From: Patescibacteria group bacterium
Lineage (GTDB): Bacteria; Patescibacteriota; Patescibacteriia; Magasanikbacterales; UBA922
Direction: 5' to 3'
Assembly (NCBI GenBank): GCA_041651535.1
Contig: JBAZIZ010000004.1
Coordinates: forward strand, 90,341-147,906
DNA length: 57,566 nucleotides
A model generated the notes under the pieces. That model was not told where the DNA came from. It did not search any database and worked only from the letters and a program-made list of their open reading frames with translations. A program made the position numbers and the translations under genes. Below, piece by piece: positions 18,998-57,232 of this stretch; positions within the stretch are counted from its first letter, which is position 1, and every line of letters begins with the position of its first letter.

Positions 18998-19028
18998 AAT
19001 TTTGCATTTTGAATTTTTAATTTATTTT
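18992..19028. repeat. A/T-rich motif copy 2 (TTTTTTAATTTTGCATTTTGAATTTTTAATTTATTTT)
   Basis: Lies between the thrS stop codon (19022-19024) and its terminator hairpin. Confidence 0.65.
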
Positions 19029-20818
19029 CTCTCTTCAATTTCTTTTTTAATTTTTTCTAAAAATTTTTCTTTAGAAATTTTTAATTGTTCTTCCTCACCA
19101 CGAATTCTCACAGTCCAATCTTCTCCAGCAATTTCATTATCACCCACAACAACCATGTAAGGAGGTTTTTGGGCAGTCGCTTTTTTAATTTTTTTACCAA
19201 CTGTTTCATCAGCATCATCACTTTCTGATCTAATTCCCAATTCTTTAAATTCAGCAACTAATTTATTAGCAAAATCAATATGTTTTTCTGAAACTGGAAT
19301 AACTTTTATTTGAATTGGAGCAAGCCAAACTGGCAAATTGCCAATATAATGTTCAAGCATAATACCCATAAATCTTTCTATTGAGCCCAAAATAGCGCGA
19401 TGAAGCATTACTGGACGATGTTTTTCTCCGTCTTCTCCGATATAAGAAATATCAAATCTTTCTGGTAAATTCATATCAACTTGAAGTGTGCCCATTTGCC
19501 AATCGCGACCAATCGCATCACGCAAAACAAATTCTAATTTTGGTCCATAAAAAGCTCCTTCCCCTTTTGAAATTTCAAATTCATAATTATTATGTATCAA
19601 AGCATCAGCCAAAGCTTTTTCTGATTTATCCCAAACTTCTTCACTACCAATTCTCTTTTCTGGACGAGTTGAAAGTTTTATTCTTACTTTTTCAAAACCT
19701 AATTCTTTGTAAGTATCTAAAATAAACTTTACTACTTTTACACTTTCCTCTTCTATCTGTTCTGGAGTACAAAAAATATGTGCGTCATCTTGAGTAAATT
19801 CTCTAACTCGTAAAAGACCATGCAAAACGCCCGAAGCTTCATAACGATTTACTTTTCCAAATTCTGACATTTTGATTGGTAAATCTTTATAAGATTTTAA
19901 ACCGTTTTTATAAACTAAAATATTTCCTGGACAATTCATTGGTTTTACACAAAATTGTCTTTCATCTTCTGTTTTTCCAGAATAATTATGTTCACCATAT
20001 TTTTCCCAATGACCAGATGATTCCCAGAGTACTCTATCCATCAATCTTGGAGTTTCTACTTCTATATAACCTGATTTTTCTTGTTTTTCTCTCATGAAAT
20101 TTATCAGTGAACGATAAACAATCCAACCAGCTGGATGCCAAAAAACCGCACCAGGAGCATATTCAGGTTCAAAATGACATAAATCCATTGATTGTAATAA
20201 TTTTCTATGGTCTCTTTTTTCAGCTTCTTTTAAAAATTCAAAATATTCATTTAATTTTTCTTTTGTTTCAAAACAAACTCCATAAATACGTGTAAGTTGA
20301 GAATTTTTTTCATCGCCACGCCAATAAGCTCCAGCCAATTTTGTTAGTTTAAAAAAACCAACTTCTTTTGCTTTTTCTACATGAGGACCACGACATAAAT
20401 CAGTAAAATTTAAAGTTTTATATAAACTTACATTTTTTATATCATTTCCAAATGTATCAGCTAATTCTTTTTCTGAATTTATTTTTGTTGTTCCTTTTTC
20501 TTTAAGATCTTTTAAAAGCTCAACTTTATAATCCTGTTTTTCTGATTGAAAAAATTTTATCGCTTCATCTATTGGTAATTCCATTCTTTCAAAAAGCACG
20601 TTTTGTTTTTGTAATTCTTTAGCTTTTTCTTCAATTTTTTTTAAATCTTCTTCATTGATAGAATCTTTACCAAAATCTATATCATAATAAAAACCATTTT
20701 CTACTGTTGGCCCAACACCAAATTTAGCTATTGGATAAAGCTCTTTGACTGCAGCGGCCACTAAATGAGCGCAACTGTGACGCATCATTTCAATATTTTT
20801 TTCTTGTTTATTTTCCAT
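19022..20818 (-). CDS. thrS: threonine--tRNA ligase (no N-terminal TGS domain)
   Basis: RHSCAHLVAAAV editing-domain motif at residue about 12, class II motifs (FRVREFTQDDAHIF), anticodon-binding C-terminus. Confidence 0.95.
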   Translation of the reverse strand: MENKQEKNIEMMRHSCAHLVAAAVKELYPIAKFGVGPTVENGFYYDIDFGKDSINEEDLKKIEEKAKELQKQNVLFERMELPIDEAIKFFQSEKQDYKVELLKDLKEKGTTKINSEKELADTFGNDIKNVSLYKTLNFTDLCRGPHVEKAKEVGFFKLTKLAGAYWRGDEKNSQLTRIYGVCFETKEKLNEYFEFLKEAEKRDHRKLLQSMDLCHFEPEYAPGAVFWHPAGWIVYRSLINFMREKQEKSGYIEVETPRLMDRVLWESSGHWEKYGEHNYSGKTEDERQFCVKPMNCPGNILVYKNGLKSYKDLPIKMSEFGKVNRYEASGVLHGLLRVREFTQDDAHIFCTPEQIEEESVKVVKFILDTYKELGFEKVRIKLSTRPEKRIGSEEVWDKSEKALADALIHNNYEFEISKGEGAFYGPKLEFVLRDAIGRDWQMGTLQVDMNLPERFDISYIGEDGEKHRPVMLHRAILGSIERFMGIMLEHYIGNLPVWLAPIQIKVIPVSEKHIDFANKLVAEFKELGIRSESDDADETVGKKIKKATAQKPPYMVVVGDNEIAGEDWTVRIRGEEEQLKISKEKFLEKIKKEIEERK

Positions 20819-20842
20819 ATTAAAAATTAAATTTTAAATTAT

Positions 20843-21379
20843 TTATTTTTTATATTCTGATTTTAAAATACTCATCATAATTAAATCAGCATATTTTTTT
20901 GTAACTGGACTTATCACTCCTTCTCTTTTTACACCTTCTGTTTTAAATCCAACTCTTTTATAGACTTTTATTGCTCTTTTGTTTTCTTTATAAACATCTA
21001 ATTCAAAACGATTGTATTTTAATTTGTTAAAAACAAAATCAATCAATAATCGTATAGTTTCTGTTCCATAACCTTTATCCCATTCTTTTTTTTCTCCGAT
21101 AATTATCCCTAACGAAATTTTTTTATTTTTTTCAGATAATTTTAAATTAGTATTCCCAATAAGTAATTTGTTTTCGTTAACAATACTAAAAAAATATCTG
21201 TCTTTTTCTTTACTGATTTTTTTTATATATTTTTTTTCTTCTTCTAAATTTTTAACTTTTTGTACTGTTAAATATTTAATGACTTCTTTATCTTTTAGCC
21301 ACTTAAAAAATTTTTCAGCATCAGCAATCTTGACTGGTCTCAAAGTTAATCTTTTTCCTTTTAAAATTATTTTTTTCAT
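20843..21379 (-). CDS. GNAT N-acetyltransferase, RimJ/RimL-like
   Basis: LRPVKIADAEKFFKW...WDKGYGTE...NKRAIKVYKRVGF is the typical Acetyltransf_3 pattern. First gene after the T-box leader. Confidence 0.8.
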   Translation of the reverse strand: MKKIILKGKRLTLRPVKIADAEKFFKWLKDKEVIKYLTVQKVKNLEEEKKYIKKISKEKDRYFFSIVNENKLLIGNTNLKLSEKNKKISLGIIIGEKKEWDKGYGTETIRLLIDFVFNKLKYNRFELDVYKENKRAIKVYKRVGFKTEGVKREGVISPVTKKYADLIMMSILKSEYKK

Positions 21380-21391
21380 ATTTTTTTAATT

Positions 21392-21700
21392 TAAAAACCC
21401 CGACAAACAACTTTACAAATATAAAATTATCTATCGGGGTCCTTGTGTGAAAGACTTTTGGCAAAACCAGCAAGGTTTAAATAATTGAATATACAATTTC
21501 CAATACCTTGACGGTCTGCTGTTCTAAAGCTCACCAAAGGTGAGCGAAGGACGGTTCCACCCGTTTTTTTACTTTTTAAATTTTTATACTCCGAGAGTGG
21601 TATCTAAACGTTTTTCTCTTTAAAAAGGTTTTCAGCCACGACCTTTTTTCTCTTATAAAGGAAGCTAACGCCAGAATTGTTTCTCGTCCAAACGTATATA
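21392..21700 (-). promoter_or_regulatory. T-box leader, ACC (Thr) specifier, controlling GNAT-thrS
   Basis: Minus strand: CGGG-UGGAACC-GUCC (21563-21549) is the T-box core. GAU-ACC-A specifier context (ACC 21601-21599) is followed by CUCUCG pairing with CGAGA (21686-21682). There is an AGAGA bulge plus distal hairpin. A 13-bp terminator (21439-21427/21410-21398) with U5 has G-U pairs valid only in the minus sense. Confidence 0.7.
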
Positions 21701-21705
21701 ATTAA

Positions 21706-21734
21706 ATAATAGTATTTTTATCAAAAAATGTCAA
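21706..21734 (-). promoter_or_regulatory. sigma70-like promoter for the thrS T-box leader (TTGACA-17-TATTAT)
   Basis: Minus strand: TTGACA at 21734-21729, 17-nt spacer, TATTAT at 21711-21706. Confidence 0.55.
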
Positions 21735-21751
21735 ATCTTATAAATTAAAAA

Positions 21752-22147
21752 TTAAAAATGCAAAATTAAAAATAACCTAGTTATGGTTATTTTTGAATTT
21801 ATTATTATTGAACCAAGAATTTTGGATATTTCAATATTTTCTTTTATCAATTCATTAACCTGATGCTCTTTGATTTTATTTGTATCTTTTAATAAACTAA
21901 GCCAAAATTTTGTTTCATTAGATGATTTTAAAGAATGGTTTAGAAAATTTATAAAATCTTTTTTAGTACTCCCAGCTTGTGCTTCTATTATATTTGCTCC
22001 GATACTAGTTGAATTTCTTAATAATTGTTTGATAATTATTGAAAAACTTATTTCTTTATTTTTTGTTTCATCCAGTGTTTTGATAACATTAATCGCAAAT
22101 AAATAAGCCCTATATTTAATATTATTTTTCCCCTCCCATTTTTTCAT
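21752..22147 (-). CDS. four-helix-bundle protein (23S rRNA intervening-sequence protein family)
   Basis: KQLLRNSTSIGANIIEAQAGSTKKDFINFLNHSLKSSNETKFWLSLL matches the TIGR02436-type pattern from memory. Confidence 0.8.
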   Translation of the reverse strand: MKKWEGKNNIKYRAYLFAINVIKTLDETKNKEISFSIIIKQLLRNSTSIGANIIEAQAGSTKKDFINFLNHSLKSSNETKFWLSLLKDTNKIKEHQVNELIKENIEISKILGSIIINSKITITRLFLILHF

Positions 22148-22166
22148 ATTTTTTTAATTTTGCATT

Positions 22167-22186
22167 CCTGCCTGCCGGCAGGTAGG
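22167..22186. repeat. GC-rich palindrome CCTGCCTGCCGGCAGGTAGG inserted in motif copy 3
   Basis: Splits GCATT|TTGAA of the A/T-rich motif. About 8 bp of stem are possible. Confidence 0.6.
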
Positions 22187-22204
22187 TTGAATTTTTAATT
22201 TATT

Positions 22205-23338
22205 TTATTCTTCTCTAATAATAATCTCTACATTATCAGCTACATGAGGAATTGTTCTCATCCAAACTGGTTTAAAATTCATTTCAACACTTTTTACATG
22301 AGGTATTGCCATAACATATCTTTTTACTTCGTCTTCAGATTTTCCTAAAAACATTATTTTTTGTAATTCTCGACTATTTTGATCTATACTTACTAAACCA
22401 GAGTAAGACAAATTTAATTCAGCATCATTTTTAGCTAAATCTATTTTTTTGATACTAAGAGAAGCTTCATTATCAGAAGATTTTAAAACTTCACTATTGT
22501 TAGTAACTTCTCTATTTAATAAATCTACTGCGTAAGTATCAATTTGTTTTTTATCATAAAAAACTGCTGATATTGTTGCTTTTCCACTCAAAACAAAATT
22601 ATCAGCTTCTTCACCTATTTTTTTGCTATTTTCAAAAGTATATTGTTCTACTTGATAAAGACCTTCTCTATCAGAAAATTTTTCTCGCAAACTTTCTTTG
22701 CCTTTTTCTTTTAAAAATTCCACTAAAGCAGTTTCAGCTTCGGCAATATCTTTTTCATCTATTATACCAATTTTTCTAATTCCACCTTCCATTGCTTTTT
22801 CACTTTTAGCATAAATCTGACTTTGTTTTTCTTCACGCAAACCAGGAATAACAAAATCTCCAGCTTCAATATTTCCATTTGGACCTTCCTCATCAGCCAC
22901 AACTTCTGCTTTTACATTTCCTTTGGCTGGAACATTAACTCGCGATTTTAATCTAAACAAAATTCCATCTTTATTTAAAAGTCTAGTAGTAGCTACTAAA
23001 GGTTGATCAATTTCAGTTTCATTGTAAAGAGTAACTTCTCCTTCAGCTTTTGCTAAAATTGTTTTTTCTCCTTCTGGATAAAAAGTATTAGAAAATTCCA
23101 CAATCGTACTGGTTACTAAAGCATTTAAATTTAATTCTTTATCACTAAGTAGTAGCGAAGAATTTATTGAAATTGGTTCTGAAGAAGTAGAAATTACAAT
23201 TTCTGCACTTTTGCTTGACATAAAAATAATTGAGGCAAGCAAAAATAAAGTTAAAAATAAAAAAGTAATCGCAATTATTTTATAAAATTTGATAGACTGC
23301 GAAAACTGATTTTGATTATAATTTTTGTTACTAACCAT
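22205..23338 (-). CDS. membrane-anchored hypothetical protein (377 aa), last gene of the pilB operon
   Basis: Single N-terminal TM helix and a large extracytoplasmic beta-rich region. No domain recognised. Confidence 0.6.
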   Translation of the reverse strand: MVSNKNYNQNQFSQSIKFYKIIAITFLFLTLFLLASIIFMSSKSAEIVISTSSEPISINSSLLLSDKELNLNALVTSTIVEFSNTFYPEGEKTILAKAEGEVTLYNETEIDQPLVATTRLLNKDGILFRLKSRVNVPAKGNVKAEVVADEEGPNGNIEAGDFVIPGLREEKQSQIYAKSEKAMEGGIRKIGIIDEKDIAEAETALVEFLKEKGKESLREKFSDREGLYQVEQYTFENSKKIGEEADNFVLSGKATISAVFYDKKQIDTYAVDLLNREVTNNSEVLKSSDNEASLSIKKIDLAKNDAELNLSYSGLVSIDQNSRELQKIMFLGKSEDEVKRYVMAIPHVKSVEMNFKPVWMRTIPHVADNVEIIIREE

Positions 23339-53947: not shown

Positions 53948-56881
53948 CTAACTTTTACTTATTTCTAAAACAATATTTTTTTCCGCAATCTTTTTTTCTT
54001 CACCTTCATTTTGCTTTTCAGTAATTTCACTAGCTAAAACATTTTTCTTTATTTCTGAATTATATTTTTCAAAAACATTTCTTATGAGTTCATCTTCAGT
54101 TTTAAAATAAATTTTAACCTGATCGCTGATTGTTAAATTTTTCTCTTTTCTTATTTGATTGATTGTTCTTACAATTTCTCGGACTAAACCTTCTTCTTTT
54201 AATTCTTCGCTCACAAAAACATTCAAACAAACTTTTAAATCAGTGTCTTCTTTAACAATTTCATTTTCAACTAATTTTGTATTATCTAAAAATAAAACTT
54301 GTTTAACATTTAATTCCTCAGCTATTATATCCAAATAATTTTTATCAATTTTATTTTTATTTATTTTTAAATAATTTAATGGCTGACGAACTTTTATTTT
54401 TGCTTCTTCACGCAAGGCTAAACCAAACTCAACTATTTTTCTTACTGATTCCATATCTGACAAAACTTTTTCATTTATTTTATCTTCAAGACTTTCAGGA
54501 AAATATTCTAAATGTACTGATTCTTGATTTGGATTTAATTTCAAAAATATTTTTTCCGCAATAAAAGGTGTGAATGGGGCAATTATTTTTGTTGTTTCTG
54601 TCAAAACATAGTGCAAAGTTTGTAAAGCTTTTTCTTTATCTTTTGCATCATCACCTTTAAAACGATCACGACTTCTTCTAACATACCATTGTGAAAGTTC
54701 AGTTATAAAATCTAAAATTGGACGAGCAGCTTCGGCTAATTTATATTCTTGCATCTTTTCATTAACTTCTTTTAACAAACTTTGTAATTTAGAAATTATC
54801 CAAATATCCAAAACATTATCTGAATCGGCTTTTATTTTTTTCGCAACAAAATCTCCAGAAAACATTTCGTAAAAAGAATAAATATTCCACAAAGTATTTA
54901 TAAATTTATTATACATTTCTTTTACACCTTCTTCAGCAAAATTTAATTTTTCAGCATGCATGACTGGTGAAGTAACTAGATAATAACGCATTGCATCAGC
55001 TCCATATTTTTCCAAAACAAGCATTGGATCAGGAAAATTATTTTTTGATTTTGACATTTTTTGTCCGTCTTCAGCCAAAACTATACCGTTAACAATTACA
55101 TTTTTAAAAGCTGGTGAAGAATCGTCTTTTTTTATCGCTGGATTTTTTCCTCCAGTCAAAGCTGTGGCTAAAACGTGGAGTGTATAAAACCAACCACGAG
55201 TTTGATCTTGTCCTTCAGCAATAAATTCTGCTGGAAAAATTTTTTCAAATTTTTCTTTATTTTCAAATGGATAATGCATTTGTCCATAAGGCATAGAACC
55301 AGATTCAAACCAACAATCCAAAACTTCTGGAATTCTTTTATATTCTTTGCCGTCTTTTTTAATAATTATTTTGTCAACAATATGTTTATGAATATCTGTA
55401 ATTTTTTCTCCAGATAATTTTTCCAATTCTTCCACACTGCCTATACAAATAGTATCGCCGTCTTCACTACGCCAAATAGGCATCGCTGAACCCCAAAAAC
55501 GATTTCTAGAAATTGCCCAGTCACGAGCACCTTCAAGCCAAAGACCAAAACGTCCATCTTTGATATGTTCTGGAACCCAATTTGTTTTTTTATTATTTTT
55601 TAATAATTCTTCTTTTAAACTAGTAACATCTACAAACCAAGAAGAAGTAGCATAATTTAATAAAGGAGTATCACAACGCCAACAATGCGGATAACTATGC
55701 TCATATTTTTCTTTACTAAATAATTTTCCATTATGAGCCAACCATTTTATTATTTCAATATCAGTACTACTATGATCTTCTTTTGGTTTTACTTCCAAAC
55801 CAGCAAAATCAGTTACATCTTTGGTAAAAGTTCCATCCATATTTACATGTTGAACAAAACCAACTTTATATTTTCTACCAACTTCATAATCATCTTCACC
55901 AAAAGCTGGAGCAATGTGGACTATACCTGTTCCGTCTTCAGTACTTACAAAATCAGCTCCAACTACTTGAAACGCATTTTCTGTATTAGCAAAATATGGA
56001 AATAAAGGTTCATATTTCAAACCAAGCAAATCTTTTCCTTTGACAACTTTTAAAACTTCAAAAACATCATTTTCTTCATCTTTAAAAATATCTAGAAGTC
56101 TTTCTTTGGCTATAATATAAATTTCATCATTATGTTTTACAAAACTATATTCTATTTTTTCTCCCACAGCTAACAAAACATTTCCTGGTAATGTCCAAGG
56201 AGTTGTTGTCCAGGCGAGTATAAAAACATCTTGACCAAAACCAAATTTTTCTTTTGAGTCTAAAATTTTAAACTTTGCTGTCGCTGAAATATCTTTTATA
56301 TCTTTATATCCTTGAGTTACTTCAAAATTAGAAAGTGGAGTCACACAATGAGGACAAATATGCATTGCTTTTTTTCCTTCATAAATCAAACCTTTATTCC
56401 AAAGTTCTTTGAAAACCCACCAAACTGTTTCCATAAAACTAAGATCCATAGTTTTGTAATCATTTTCCATATCTACCCAGCGTCCAGTTCGATGGATTAT
56501 TTTTTTCCAATCTTCCGCATATTTCATAACTGTTGCTCGACAAGCTTCATTAAATTTATCTACTCCGTATTCTTCAATCGCTTTTTTAGAATTCAAATTT
56601 AATTTTTTTTCAATTATATTTTCAATTGGAAGTCCATGACAATCCCAACCCCATTTTCTTTCTACTCTTTTTCCTTTCATTGTCCAATAACGTGGTACAA
56701 CATCTTTCATCAAACTAGCGACTATGTGTCCATAATGTGGAAGTCCAGTAGCAAAAGGTGGACCATCATAAAAAGCGTAGGGATTTTTTTCATCTCGTTC
56801 TGAAATTGATTTTTCAAAAATCTTTTTTTCATCCCAATATTTTAATATTTCTAATTCGTTTTCATTTGAGTTATATGGCAT
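53948..56881 (-). CDS. ileS: isoleucine--tRNA ligase, type 2 (eukaryote-like)
   Basis: YDGPPFATGLPHYGHI (HIGH), KMSKSKNN, CP1 editing insertion. 977 aa. Confidence 0.97.
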   Translation of the reverse strand: MPYNSNENELEILKYWDEKKIFEKSISERDEKNPYAFYDGPPFATGLPHYGHIVASLMKDVVPRYWTMKGKRVERKWGWDCHGLPIENIIEKKLNLNSKKAIEEYGVDKFNEACRATVMKYAEDWKKIIHRTGRWVDMENDYKTMDLSFMETVWWVFKELWNKGLIYEGKKAMHICPHCVTPLSNFEVTQGYKDIKDISATAKFKILDSKEKFGFGQDVFILAWTTTPWTLPGNVLLAVGEKIEYSFVKHNDEIYIIAKERLLDIFKDEENDVFEVLKVVKGKDLLGLKYEPLFPYFANTENAFQVVGADFVSTEDGTGIVHIAPAFGEDDYEVGRKYKVGFVQHVNMDGTFTKDVTDFAGLEVKPKEDHSSTDIEIIKWLAHNGKLFSKEKYEHSYPHCWRCDTPLLNYATSSWFVDVTSLKEELLKNNKKTNWVPEHIKDGRFGLWLEGARDWAISRNRFWGSAMPIWRSEDGDTICIGSVEELEKLSGEKITDIHKHIVDKIIIKKDGKEYKRIPEVLDCWFESGSMPYGQMHYPFENKEKFEKIFPAEFIAEGQDQTRGWFYTLHVLATALTGGKNPAIKKDDSSPAFKNVIVNGIVLAEDGQKMSKSKNNFPDPMLVLEKYGADAMRYYLVTSPVMHAEKLNFAEEGVKEMYNKFINTLWNIYSFYEMFSGDFVAKKIKADSDNVLDIWIISKLQSLLKEVNEKMQEYKLAEAARPILDFITELSQWYVRRSRDRFKGDDAKDKEKALQTLHYVLTETTKIIAPFTPFIAEKIFLKLNPNQESVHLEYFPESLEDKINEKVLSDMESVRKIVEFGLALREEAKIKVRQPLNYLKINKNKIDKNYLDIIAEELNVKQVLFLDNTKLVENEIVKEDTDLKVCLNVFVSEELKEEGLVREIVRTINQIRKEKNLTISDQVKIYFKTEDELIRNVFEKYNSEIKKNVLASEITEKQNEGEEKKIAEKNIVLEISKS

Positions 56882-57031: not shown

Positions 57032-57232
57032 TAAAAAAACACTTGCAAATATAGGAACTTGAAATTCAAGCGGTACCATCCTATTTCTACAAATGTAGCA
57101 CTTATTTTAGCTATTACGGGCAAACCCGAGAAGTTCTACTTTTTTTCCGCCTAAGACGGATAAATTTCTTCTTCTAACCTGTAAAAAATACTTTCTGCTG
57201 ATAACAGATCAAAGGTTTTTATAATTATTTTA
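57032..57232 (-). promoter_or_regulatory. T-box leader controlling ileS
   Basis: Minus strand 57083-57050: AUAGGA-UGGUACC-GCUUGA-AUU-UCAAGU-UCCUAU is a canonical antiterminator with a 7-nt bulge. It is preceded by Stem III-like CUAC/GUAG (57097-57086) and CGGG-UUUG-CCCG (57127-57116). A U7 tract lies at 57038-57032. Confidence 0.75.

Follow-up and report, generated by a model that had tools for sequence, protein, structure and literature searches.

A probable threonine-specific T-box leader with an insertion in antiterminator helix A2 upstream of GNAT-thrS in a Patescibacteria genome

The stretch analysed here (57,566 nucleotides of contig JBAZIZ010000004.1 from a Patescibacteria group bacterium, hereafter the window) carries on its minus strand, in this order, a gene encoding a four-helix 23S-rRNA-intervening-sequence protein (23S-rRNA-IVP), a leader gap, a gene encoding a GNAT N-acetyltransferase (Acetyltransf_3) and, 24 nt further downstream, the threonyl-tRNA synthetase gene thrS. 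The intergenic gap spans 372 nt (21380-21751) and is richer in GC than the window as a whole (33.5% vs 27.7%), as pointed out in the initial annotation, which rested on the sequence alone. The leader that it contains has a minimum free energy (MFE) z-score of -5.4 relative to shuffled controls, and five terminator-like sites are found in the leader region where 0.3 are expected. This leader of GNAT-thrS is very probably a class I (transcription-attenuating) T-box specific for tRNA-Thr(GGU). The Thr-specifier T-box proposed in the initial annotation is thus upheld, mainly by comparison with related loci and not by the score obtained with RF00230, the T-box model of Rfam. The features of the leader and of the two genes beneath it, all on the minus strand, are as follows.

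21706-21734, minus strand: sigma-70-type promoter, TTGACA (21734-21729), 17-nt spacer and TATTAT (21711-21706), agreeing with the consensus at 11 of 12 positions
21585-21698, minus strand: long Stem I, from the RF00230 alignment, the MFE fold giving the same structure
21599-21601, minus strand: ACC, the Thr specifier codon, with the purine A (21598) after it, on the 3' side of the specifier loop (GAU-ACC-A), with thrS downstream
about 21564-21585, minus strand: A-rich linker of about 22 nt, seen in the sequence, where RF00230 deletes the corresponding model regions
21549-21563, minus strand: T-box core, with the A1 5' strand CGGG (21563-21560), the 7-nt bulge UGGAACC (21559-21553) and the A2 5' strand GUCC (21552-21549)
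21443-21548, minus strand: 106-nt insert in the apical loop of A2, a clean indel relative to the leaders of loci L081, L212 and L213
21435-21442, minus strand: antiterminator 3' strands GGAC (A2) and CCCG (A1), CCCG doubling as terminator 5' arm
21393-21441, minus strand: intrinsic terminator of 19-20 pairs followed by U5 (21397-21393); hairpin 21441-21396 in the terminator scan, with the core given in the initial annotation at 21439-21398
20843-21379, minus strand: GNAT N-acetyltransferase gene (Acetyltransf_3, RimJ/RimL-like; Pfam E=4.8e-28), first gene under the leader
19022-20818, minus strand: thrS (Pfam tRNA_SAD, tRNA-synt_2b and HGTP_anticodon), second regulated gene

Every sequence motif that had been listed in the initial annotation lies where it was placed on the minus strand. 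The promoter is the top-scoring promoter-like site between 20700 and 22300 and predicts a transcription start near 21699. The base of Stem I consists of a helix UAUAC/GUAUA and of a K-turn-like GA/GA motif flanking the helix CGAGA (21686-21682)/UCUCG (21596-21592). Above it come an AGAGA bulge (21653-21649) and a distal hairpin AAAAAGGU/ACCUUUUU with the loop CGUGGCUGAAA (21640-21630). At the sequence level, AGAGA and CGUGGCUGAAA align to AGAGA and GgUUGGUGaaA of the RF00230 model, so that both motifs of the platform are present. The specifier codon ACC matches the aminoacyl-tRNA synthetase gene that lies downstream. Between Stem I and the T-box core, neither the MFE fold nor the Rfam alignment gives any stable Stem II, IIA/B or Stem III; the linker nevertheless keeps AAGUAAA, which is the loop of a mini Stem III (4-5 bp) in some relatives, such a mini stem being present in loci L110, L173 and L089. 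A 50-aa open reading frame (21321-21473) was considered as a leader peptide and rejected, as it starts with TTG, overlaps the start of the GNAT gene and shows no conservation.

The exact sequence GGGTGGNACCG occurs only once in the window, and three matches are obtained when one mismatch is allowed, compared with 0.2 expected. The GGAC-CCCG strand begins exactly 106 nt after GUCC, the very distance first reported between the two antiterminator strands. The terminator is the top-scoring site of its kind in 20700-22300 and its hairpin folds at -27.2 kcal/mol; it does contain the three G-U pairs that had been described as existing in the minus-sense RNA only, but its U-run ends 13 nt before the ATG of the GNAT gene at 21379, and not 14 nt as first stated. 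Over the whole expression platform, the fold with the terminator reaches -65.5 kcal/mol vs -50.4 kcal/mol when the antiterminator is enforced (gap of +15.1 kcal/mol), so that the constrained folding suggested in the initial annotation makes the terminator about 15 kcal/mol more stable. The alternative helix is a hairpin followed by U5 that is located 13 nt before the ATG and leaves this codon uncovered, rather than a helix sequestering the Shine-Dalgarno sequence or the start codon. A hairpin of 19-20 pairs with U5 therefore favours transcriptional control over Shine-Dalgarno sequestration.

The initial annotation had expected a match to RF00230 near its threshold, and this expectation failed: in a scan of 651 nt, the window leader obtains 24.5 bits (E=0.002) where the gathering score is 93, the latter being an operational threshold and not a mechanistic feature. 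RF00230 is still the top local Rfam match in a permissive local scan, and on the correct strand. The alignment covers Stem I (GA motif, AGAGA, distal loop, GAU-ACC-A and GGAG) and leaves the 3' half of the model unaligned in the window. The leader of L212, which is devoid of the insert, reaches 34.1 bits (E=7.5e-6) and aligns through the bulge and the antiterminator, its GGACCCCG being aligned to the antiterminator 3' strand of the model with high posterior probability. Because compact relatives and this alignment display it, the long-range pairing GUCC/GGAC plus CGGG/CCCG, already drawn in the initial annotation, is shown to be the real antiterminator. The RF00230 matches of relatives came from region-restricted scans; whole-locus Rfam scans of the relatives gave no T-box match at E<=1, and no Rfam family reaches its gathering threshold in the whole window.

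The main evidence comes from ten distinct thrS leaders: that of the window and those of L081, L212, L213/214, L084/085, L089, L110, L173, L206, L211 and L134, the leaders of L081 and L212 being essentially the same and counted once. They were drawn from low-GC contigs carrying relatives of ThrS or of the GNAT protein and from true metagenome matches to the 15-nt core. The scan of metagenomes with this 15-mer returned 120 loci, mostly chance matches in high-GC coding DNA, and the four true ones are L110, L134, L173 and L206. All ten leaders are located directly upstream of thrS or of GNAT-thrS. All of them present ACC followed by A in a loop, across three Stem I architectures, and carry the identical core CGGG-UGGAACC-GUCC. 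In each of the ten, the 3' strand reads G(G/A)AC-CCCG or differs little from it, and CCCCG serves again in a hairpin that precedes a U-run. The sequences of these hairpins differ, and compensatory changes keep them paired (for example, ACUA/UAGU in L084 vs ACCA/UGGU in L089). In four long-Stem-I leaders, 99.1% of the Stem I and terminator cells pair, vs 42-51% in slid controls, and compensatory changes affect three pairs of the helix above the specifier loop. The covariation within Stem I, which relies on four sequences, is modest but consistent, being reached by 9 of 500 shuffles. Specifier, bulge flanks and terminator are therefore kept with covariation in the upstream regions of thrS, where the initial annotation had proposed to look for it. 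A TTGACA -35 box also lies at the equivalent position in L081, L212, L213, L084, L089, L173, L206 and L134. The T-box core is missing from the thrS locus of a member of the Paceibacterota (L077), indicating that such leaders are not universal in the Candidate Phyla Radiation (CPR).

The leaders of L081, L212 and L213 share about 90% identity with that of the window across Stem I, core and terminator, and their A2 loop, GUCC-(U)UAUAA-GGAC-CCCG, contains only 5-6 nt. As these near-identical relatives have such a short loop, the 106 nt of the window represent a cleanly delimited insertion into the A2 apical loop. The insert comprises, in this order, UUC, a hairpin called hp1 (GCUCACC-UUU-GGUGAGC, 21545-21529), a 9-nt spacer, a long imperfect hairpin (21519-21461), within which lies the second hairpin of the initial annotation (21510-21471), and an 18-nt tail (21460-21443). 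It folds autonomously at -31.5 kcal/mol. Inserts of 69-86 nt occupy the same spot in L084, L089, L110 and L206. All five inserts start with UUCG and hp1; the latter is fully Watson-Crick in the five leaders, and 4 of its 7 pairs show double changes that are compensatory. The inserts of L084, L089, L110 and L206 have a further hairpin in common, CGGCAAGCCGUC, whereas the second hairpin of the window (21519-21461) has no detectable homolog among the recovered leaders. The distribution of inserts is patchy, as they are carried by five of the ten leaders and are missing from the closest relatives of the window. The window-type insert was not encountered a second time; P0121, whose GNAT protein is 95% identical to that of the window, offers only 40 nt of upstream sequence. 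The insert does not qualify as a repeat or a mobile element, since neither the window nor any of the loci has another copy of it, nor as a known RNA family, since no Rfam match was obtained; hp1 as a displaced Stem III was likewise rejected because of its topology, as it caps A2 and does not stack under A1. In addition, GUCUUU of the insert tail (21455-21450) and AAGGAC of the A2 3' strand can form a local 6-bp hairpin (21437-21455, minus strand) that resembles the compact GUCC-loop-GGAC top of the relatives and that could be a decoy or a leftover of the insertion event.

The energy gap of the compact leader of L213 is +15.3 kcal/mol, and gaps range from +10 to +15 kcal/mol in all leaders but one. 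Since the gap of the window is the same as that of L213, the insert is thermodynamically neutral to the switch. The 106-nt spacer is a lineage-specific expansion of the A2 apical loop, most likely tolerated or mildly modulatory. What the initial annotation had singled out as an odd, unusually large loop is a real insertion of 106 nt, yet it is not unprecedented, as A2 insertions are known (PMC9177973, PMC7583486). An appreciable minority of the probability must be left to the insert being a functional domain of a genuine T-box, which would touch the acceptor arm of the tRNA or adjust tRNA discrimination, bind another factor, or delay folding during transcription; such a delay would give Stem I more time to capture the tRNA and offset the absence of a Stem II/III spacer. 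The presence of inserts at the same position in half of the leaders, with UUCG and an hp1 that is compensated at several pairs, and the second motif CGGCAAGCCGUC shared by four of them would fit this hypothesis. Precedents also exist: stem Sa, a 42-nt element of the antiterminator domain of the glyS T-box in staphylococci that was missed by detection tools, modulates read-through and isoacceptor discrimination, both of which are altered by its deletion or grafting (PMC9177973), and a review suggests that A2 insertions aid folding or touch the tRNA (PMC7583486). However, L081, L212, L213, L173, L211 and L134 cope with loops of 5-15 nt before the same genes, the second hairpin of the window is without homolog, the energy gap is unchanged by the insert, and the covariation of hp1 may merely keep the loop compact for the closure of A2.

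Several findings weigh against the T-box assignment or against its being operational. The RF00230 score is far below the gathering score. Four of the relatives were retrieved by means of the 15-nt core itself, which makes its invariance there partly a matter of construction. No tRNA-Thr gene was found in the window or in any fetched related locus, and no tRNA gene of any kind was found in the 57.5 kb of the window (1-57566). The window leader lacks a stable Stem III, which in studied T-boxes contributes to the stability of the helix that the bulge forms with the tRNA 3' end (PMC7778990), and it is alone among the four close long-Stem-I leaders in carrying the insert. Finally, in the nascent RNA, the local GUCUUU/AAGGAC hairpin has an advantage of 1.6 kcal/mol over the canonical A2, which could weaken antitermination; in L206, an alternative nascent fold is likewise 2.0 kcal/mol better than its own canonical A2/antiterminator.

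The low RF00230 score, the silence of the whole-locus scans of relatives and the failure of the model to detect leaders of the L089 and L206 types would be expected if there were no T-box at all, the likeness having arisen by chance in another structured leader (a protein-binding attenuator) or in a translational regulator. This is very improbable, as codon, bulge, antiterminator and terminator co-occur with covariation upstream of thrS in ten leaders, the full antiterminator aligns in L212, the same window contains a better-scoring T-box before ileS (see below), and a strong hairpin with a U-run indicates transcriptional control and not Shine-Dalgarno sequestration. It is somewhat less improbable, though still unlikely, that a recent insertion has impaired the T-box of the window, which would then be a mostly constitutive attenuator or a decaying element in which the long spacer and the GUCUUU/AAGGAC hairpin hinder the antiterminator. 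The restriction of the insert to one of four near-identical leaders, the advantage of the non-canonical nascent fold and the lack of a Stem III to stabilise the tRNA-bound state are consistent with such a scenario. On the other hand, thrS is essential and second in the operon, and permanent termination would be costly; the functional motifs are all intact and the differences from relatives in Stem I are compensatory; homologous inserts with a conserved hp1 persist in several diverged lineages; and compact relatives have the same energy gap. A functional threonine-specific T-box thus remains the preferred interpretation.

Anatomy, conservation, covariation, insert boundaries and energetics were determined directly; from them we infer tRNA binding and the logic of read-through, as well as any role of the insert. 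Regulation by the T-box would then proceed as follows. Transcription would start about 7 nt past the TATTAT box, and Stem I (21698-21585) would fold first and capture tRNA-Thr, ACC pairing with the GGU anticodon while the tRNA elbow would stack on the platform formed by AGAGA and the distal loop. The UGGAACC bulge would be made next, after which the 106 nt would fold as two autonomous hairpins, thereby reuniting GUCC and GGAC. If the tRNA is uncharged, its 3' NCCA would pair with UGGA and stabilise both A1 (CGGG/CCCG) and A2 (GUCC/GGAC), and this stabilised antiterminator would allow the polymerase to read into GNAT and thrS. If the tRNA is charged, the terminator, more stable by about 15 kcal/mol, would form by means of CCCG and transcription would stop at U5 (21397-21393). 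The UGGA of the bulge predicts that the discriminator of tRNA-Thr is U73. Being located between the Thr T-box and thrS, the GNAT gene should be co-regulated by the charging of tRNA-Thr.

Upstream of the shared core, the leaders carry one of three 5' modules: a long Stem I (window, L081, L212, L213 and L134), a four-way junction (L084, L089, L110 and L173) or a short Stem I (L206 and L211). The two modules that differ from that of the window are located as follows.

L084 3150-3260, L089 880-975, L110 55-140 and L173 610-692: four-way-junction leaders
L206 3490-3570 (reverse-complement coordinates) and L211 1-95: short-Stem-I leaders

In the four-way junction, an outer stem and a conserved GAUUG are accompanied by a hairpin whose stem covaries and whose 7-nt loop reads (C/U)(U/C)ACCAA, as well as by two small hairpins and by CUAA, which is also conserved. 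The short Stem I consists of AAAGA/UCUUU and GGAG with the specifier GGUACCAC; it is followed in L206 by the A2 insert of 86 nt and in L211 by an extended A2 hairpin, GUCCGGAUU-AAAAU-AAUCUUGAC. RF00230 gives no match to the leaders of these two types, which have no elbow-binding platform and yet possess strong intrinsic terminators. Many mixes of Stem I type, insert and GNAT gene are encountered, and every Stem I type occurs with and without insert, which points to a rapid modular evolution or to recombination of the leader. Elsewhere in locus L206 (1111-1213, minus strand of the locus), a long perfect hairpin that is unrelated to the leader matches RF02625 (Wolbachia sRNA 46) at 55.7 bits for a gathering score of 65.3 (E=2e-9).

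Transcriptional T-boxes generally require a long platform-bearing Stem I (PMC7583486), and the platform-less leaders would be exceptions to this requirement if they are functional. The four-way junction may represent a form of Stem I not yet described for transcriptional T-boxes. More broadly, it is possible, although clearly short of an even chance, that this CPR clade possesses fast-evolving, modular transcriptional T-boxes that escape current models, with a functional A2 insert and with platform-less relatives working by intrinsic termination. In such a modular family, the insert made of hp1 and a CAAG-loop hairpin may contact the acceptor arm or act as a co-transcriptional timer replacing Stem III/II. 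If this were true, the working platform-less leaders would contradict the need for a long platform-bearing Stem I in transcriptional T-boxes.

A second T-box leader is found in the window, upstream of ileS (53948-56881).

57050-57204, minus strand: ileS T-box leader, RF00230 54.6 bits (gathering score 93), E=4.2e-11

The short Stem I of this leader contains the specifier region GAAAUUUAUCC (AUU or AUC, both of which are Ile codons). Stem III reads CGGG-UUUG-CCCG and the bulge UGGUACC, and the antiterminator is compact; the ATG lies about 165 nt beyond the T-box, an interval that contains additional hairpins. The variable base of the bulge thus differs between the two leaders (UGGA for thrS and UGGU for ileS), as would be expected if they track different tRNA discriminators. 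Both aminoacyl-tRNA synthetase genes identified in the window, thrS and ileS, therefore have T-box leaders, and both genes rank with the best-conserved targets of T-boxes in Firmicutes (PMC2494555).

The GNAT protein of the window (20843-21379) does not reach any NCBIfam equivalog cut-off. The order GNAT-thrS is also found in L081, L084, L089, L173, L211 and L212, the GNAT gene being patchy among relatives and missing in L110, L206, L134 and L213. The ThrS of the window is devoid of the N-terminal TGS domain. It has five close relatives at 80-89% identity, the next ones being at 60% or less, and its best named matches beyond its own small clade are alphaproteobacterial (about 57% identity). 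In a scan of a genome collection, the relatives among the matches listed share 44-54% identity with it and are mostly proteobacterial, without any T-box core upstream of thrS. L213 (5642-5923) and L214 (5939-6220) are syntenic with window 19022-21751, their UvrA being 84% identical. They carry a long-Stem-I leader that is near-identical to that of the window, yet it is followed by no GNAT gene and by a thrS that is only 60% identical. The genes located 3' of the conserved leader appear to have undergone replacement. On the other side of the leader, the adjoining 23S-rRNA-IVP gene (21752-22147, minus strand; four-helix bundle) is missing at the same position in L081, L084 and L213, where a gene encoding a protein of 376-378 aa directly precedes the leader; it looks like a local insertion in the lineage of the window. 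The nearest named relatives of UvrA belong to Candidatus Parcubacteria, Portnoybacteria and Magasanikbacteria (66-73% identity). As these relatives are CPR, the host can be assigned to the CPR/Patescibacteria, in agreement with the CPR-like genome suspected from the start.

T-boxes are largely known from Firmicutes and Actinobacteria, with few examples in other phyla (PMC2494555), and gene regulation in CPR/Patescibacteria is essentially unknown (PMC11665869). No report of a T-box in CPR, Patescibacteria, Parcubacteria or Saccharibacteria was found in the full-text literature of one collection, which is no proof of novelty. As both leaders of the window score below the gathering threshold and two of the three architectures are unmatched, automated annotation would miss such a T-box regulon. 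The family of thrS leaders, in which near-identical leaders differ by the presence or absence of the A2 insert and in which three designs of Stem I coexist, amounts to a ready-made experiment on the contributions of A2 insertions, Stem III and the Stem I platform, which are open questions according to PMC7583486. The main value of this locus would thus lie in the evidence for a CPR T-box regulon missed by standard models and in this natural plus/minus-insert series.

The leader of the window can be compared with three types of known T-boxes. With the class I T-boxes of the glyQS type (RF00230), it shares a long Stem I with a GA/K-turn-like base, a specifier loop displaying a codon followed by a purine, the AGAGA bulge and distal-loop motifs of the platform, and the absence of Stem II or IIA/B. 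As in those T-boxes, A1 and A2 are separated by a 7-nt UGGNACC bulge, the A1 3' strand also takes part in a terminator that ends in a U-run, and the target is the gene of the cognate aminoacyl-tRNA synthetase. It differs from them by its score (24.5 bits vs 93), the lack of Stem III, the 106-nt insertion of two hairpins in A2, its CPR/Patescibacteria host and the GNAT gene located between leader and thrS.

The closest parallel to the insert is stem Sa of staphylococci (PMC9177973; Apostolidi et al. 2015, PMC4574755), likewise a lineage-specific A2 insertion in a transcriptional T-box devoid of Stem II; the T-box that carries it also escaped standard detection tools, and its length varies among related species. 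As for stem Sa, the insertion of the window is apical in A2, and the inserts of its lineage share a covarying hairpin, hp1. The two elements are likened by position and not by sequence, stem Sa having 42 nt and the insert of the window 106 nt with at least two hairpins. Furthermore, stem Sa is present in all staphylococci, whereas inserts of the window type are patchy (5/10 leaders) and missing in the closest relatives, and the staphylococcal T-box keeps a Stem III that the leader of the window lacks. A2 insertions are also frequent in translational T-boxes, where their function is unknown (PMC7583486). Like the leader of the window, class II actinobacterial T-boxes carry an extra structured element atop helix A2 of the antiterminator/antisequestrator (PMC7583486), but these insertions mostly accompany a short or ultrashort Stem I and ribosome-binding control, whereas the window combines a long platform-bearing Stem I with an intrinsic terminator. 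An A2 insertion therefore belongs to a known category; the CPR host, the size of the insert and the lack of Stem III are new here, and its association with an intrinsic terminator and with a long Stem I that bears the platform, along with its patchy distribution among very close relatives, also distinguishes it from these precedents.

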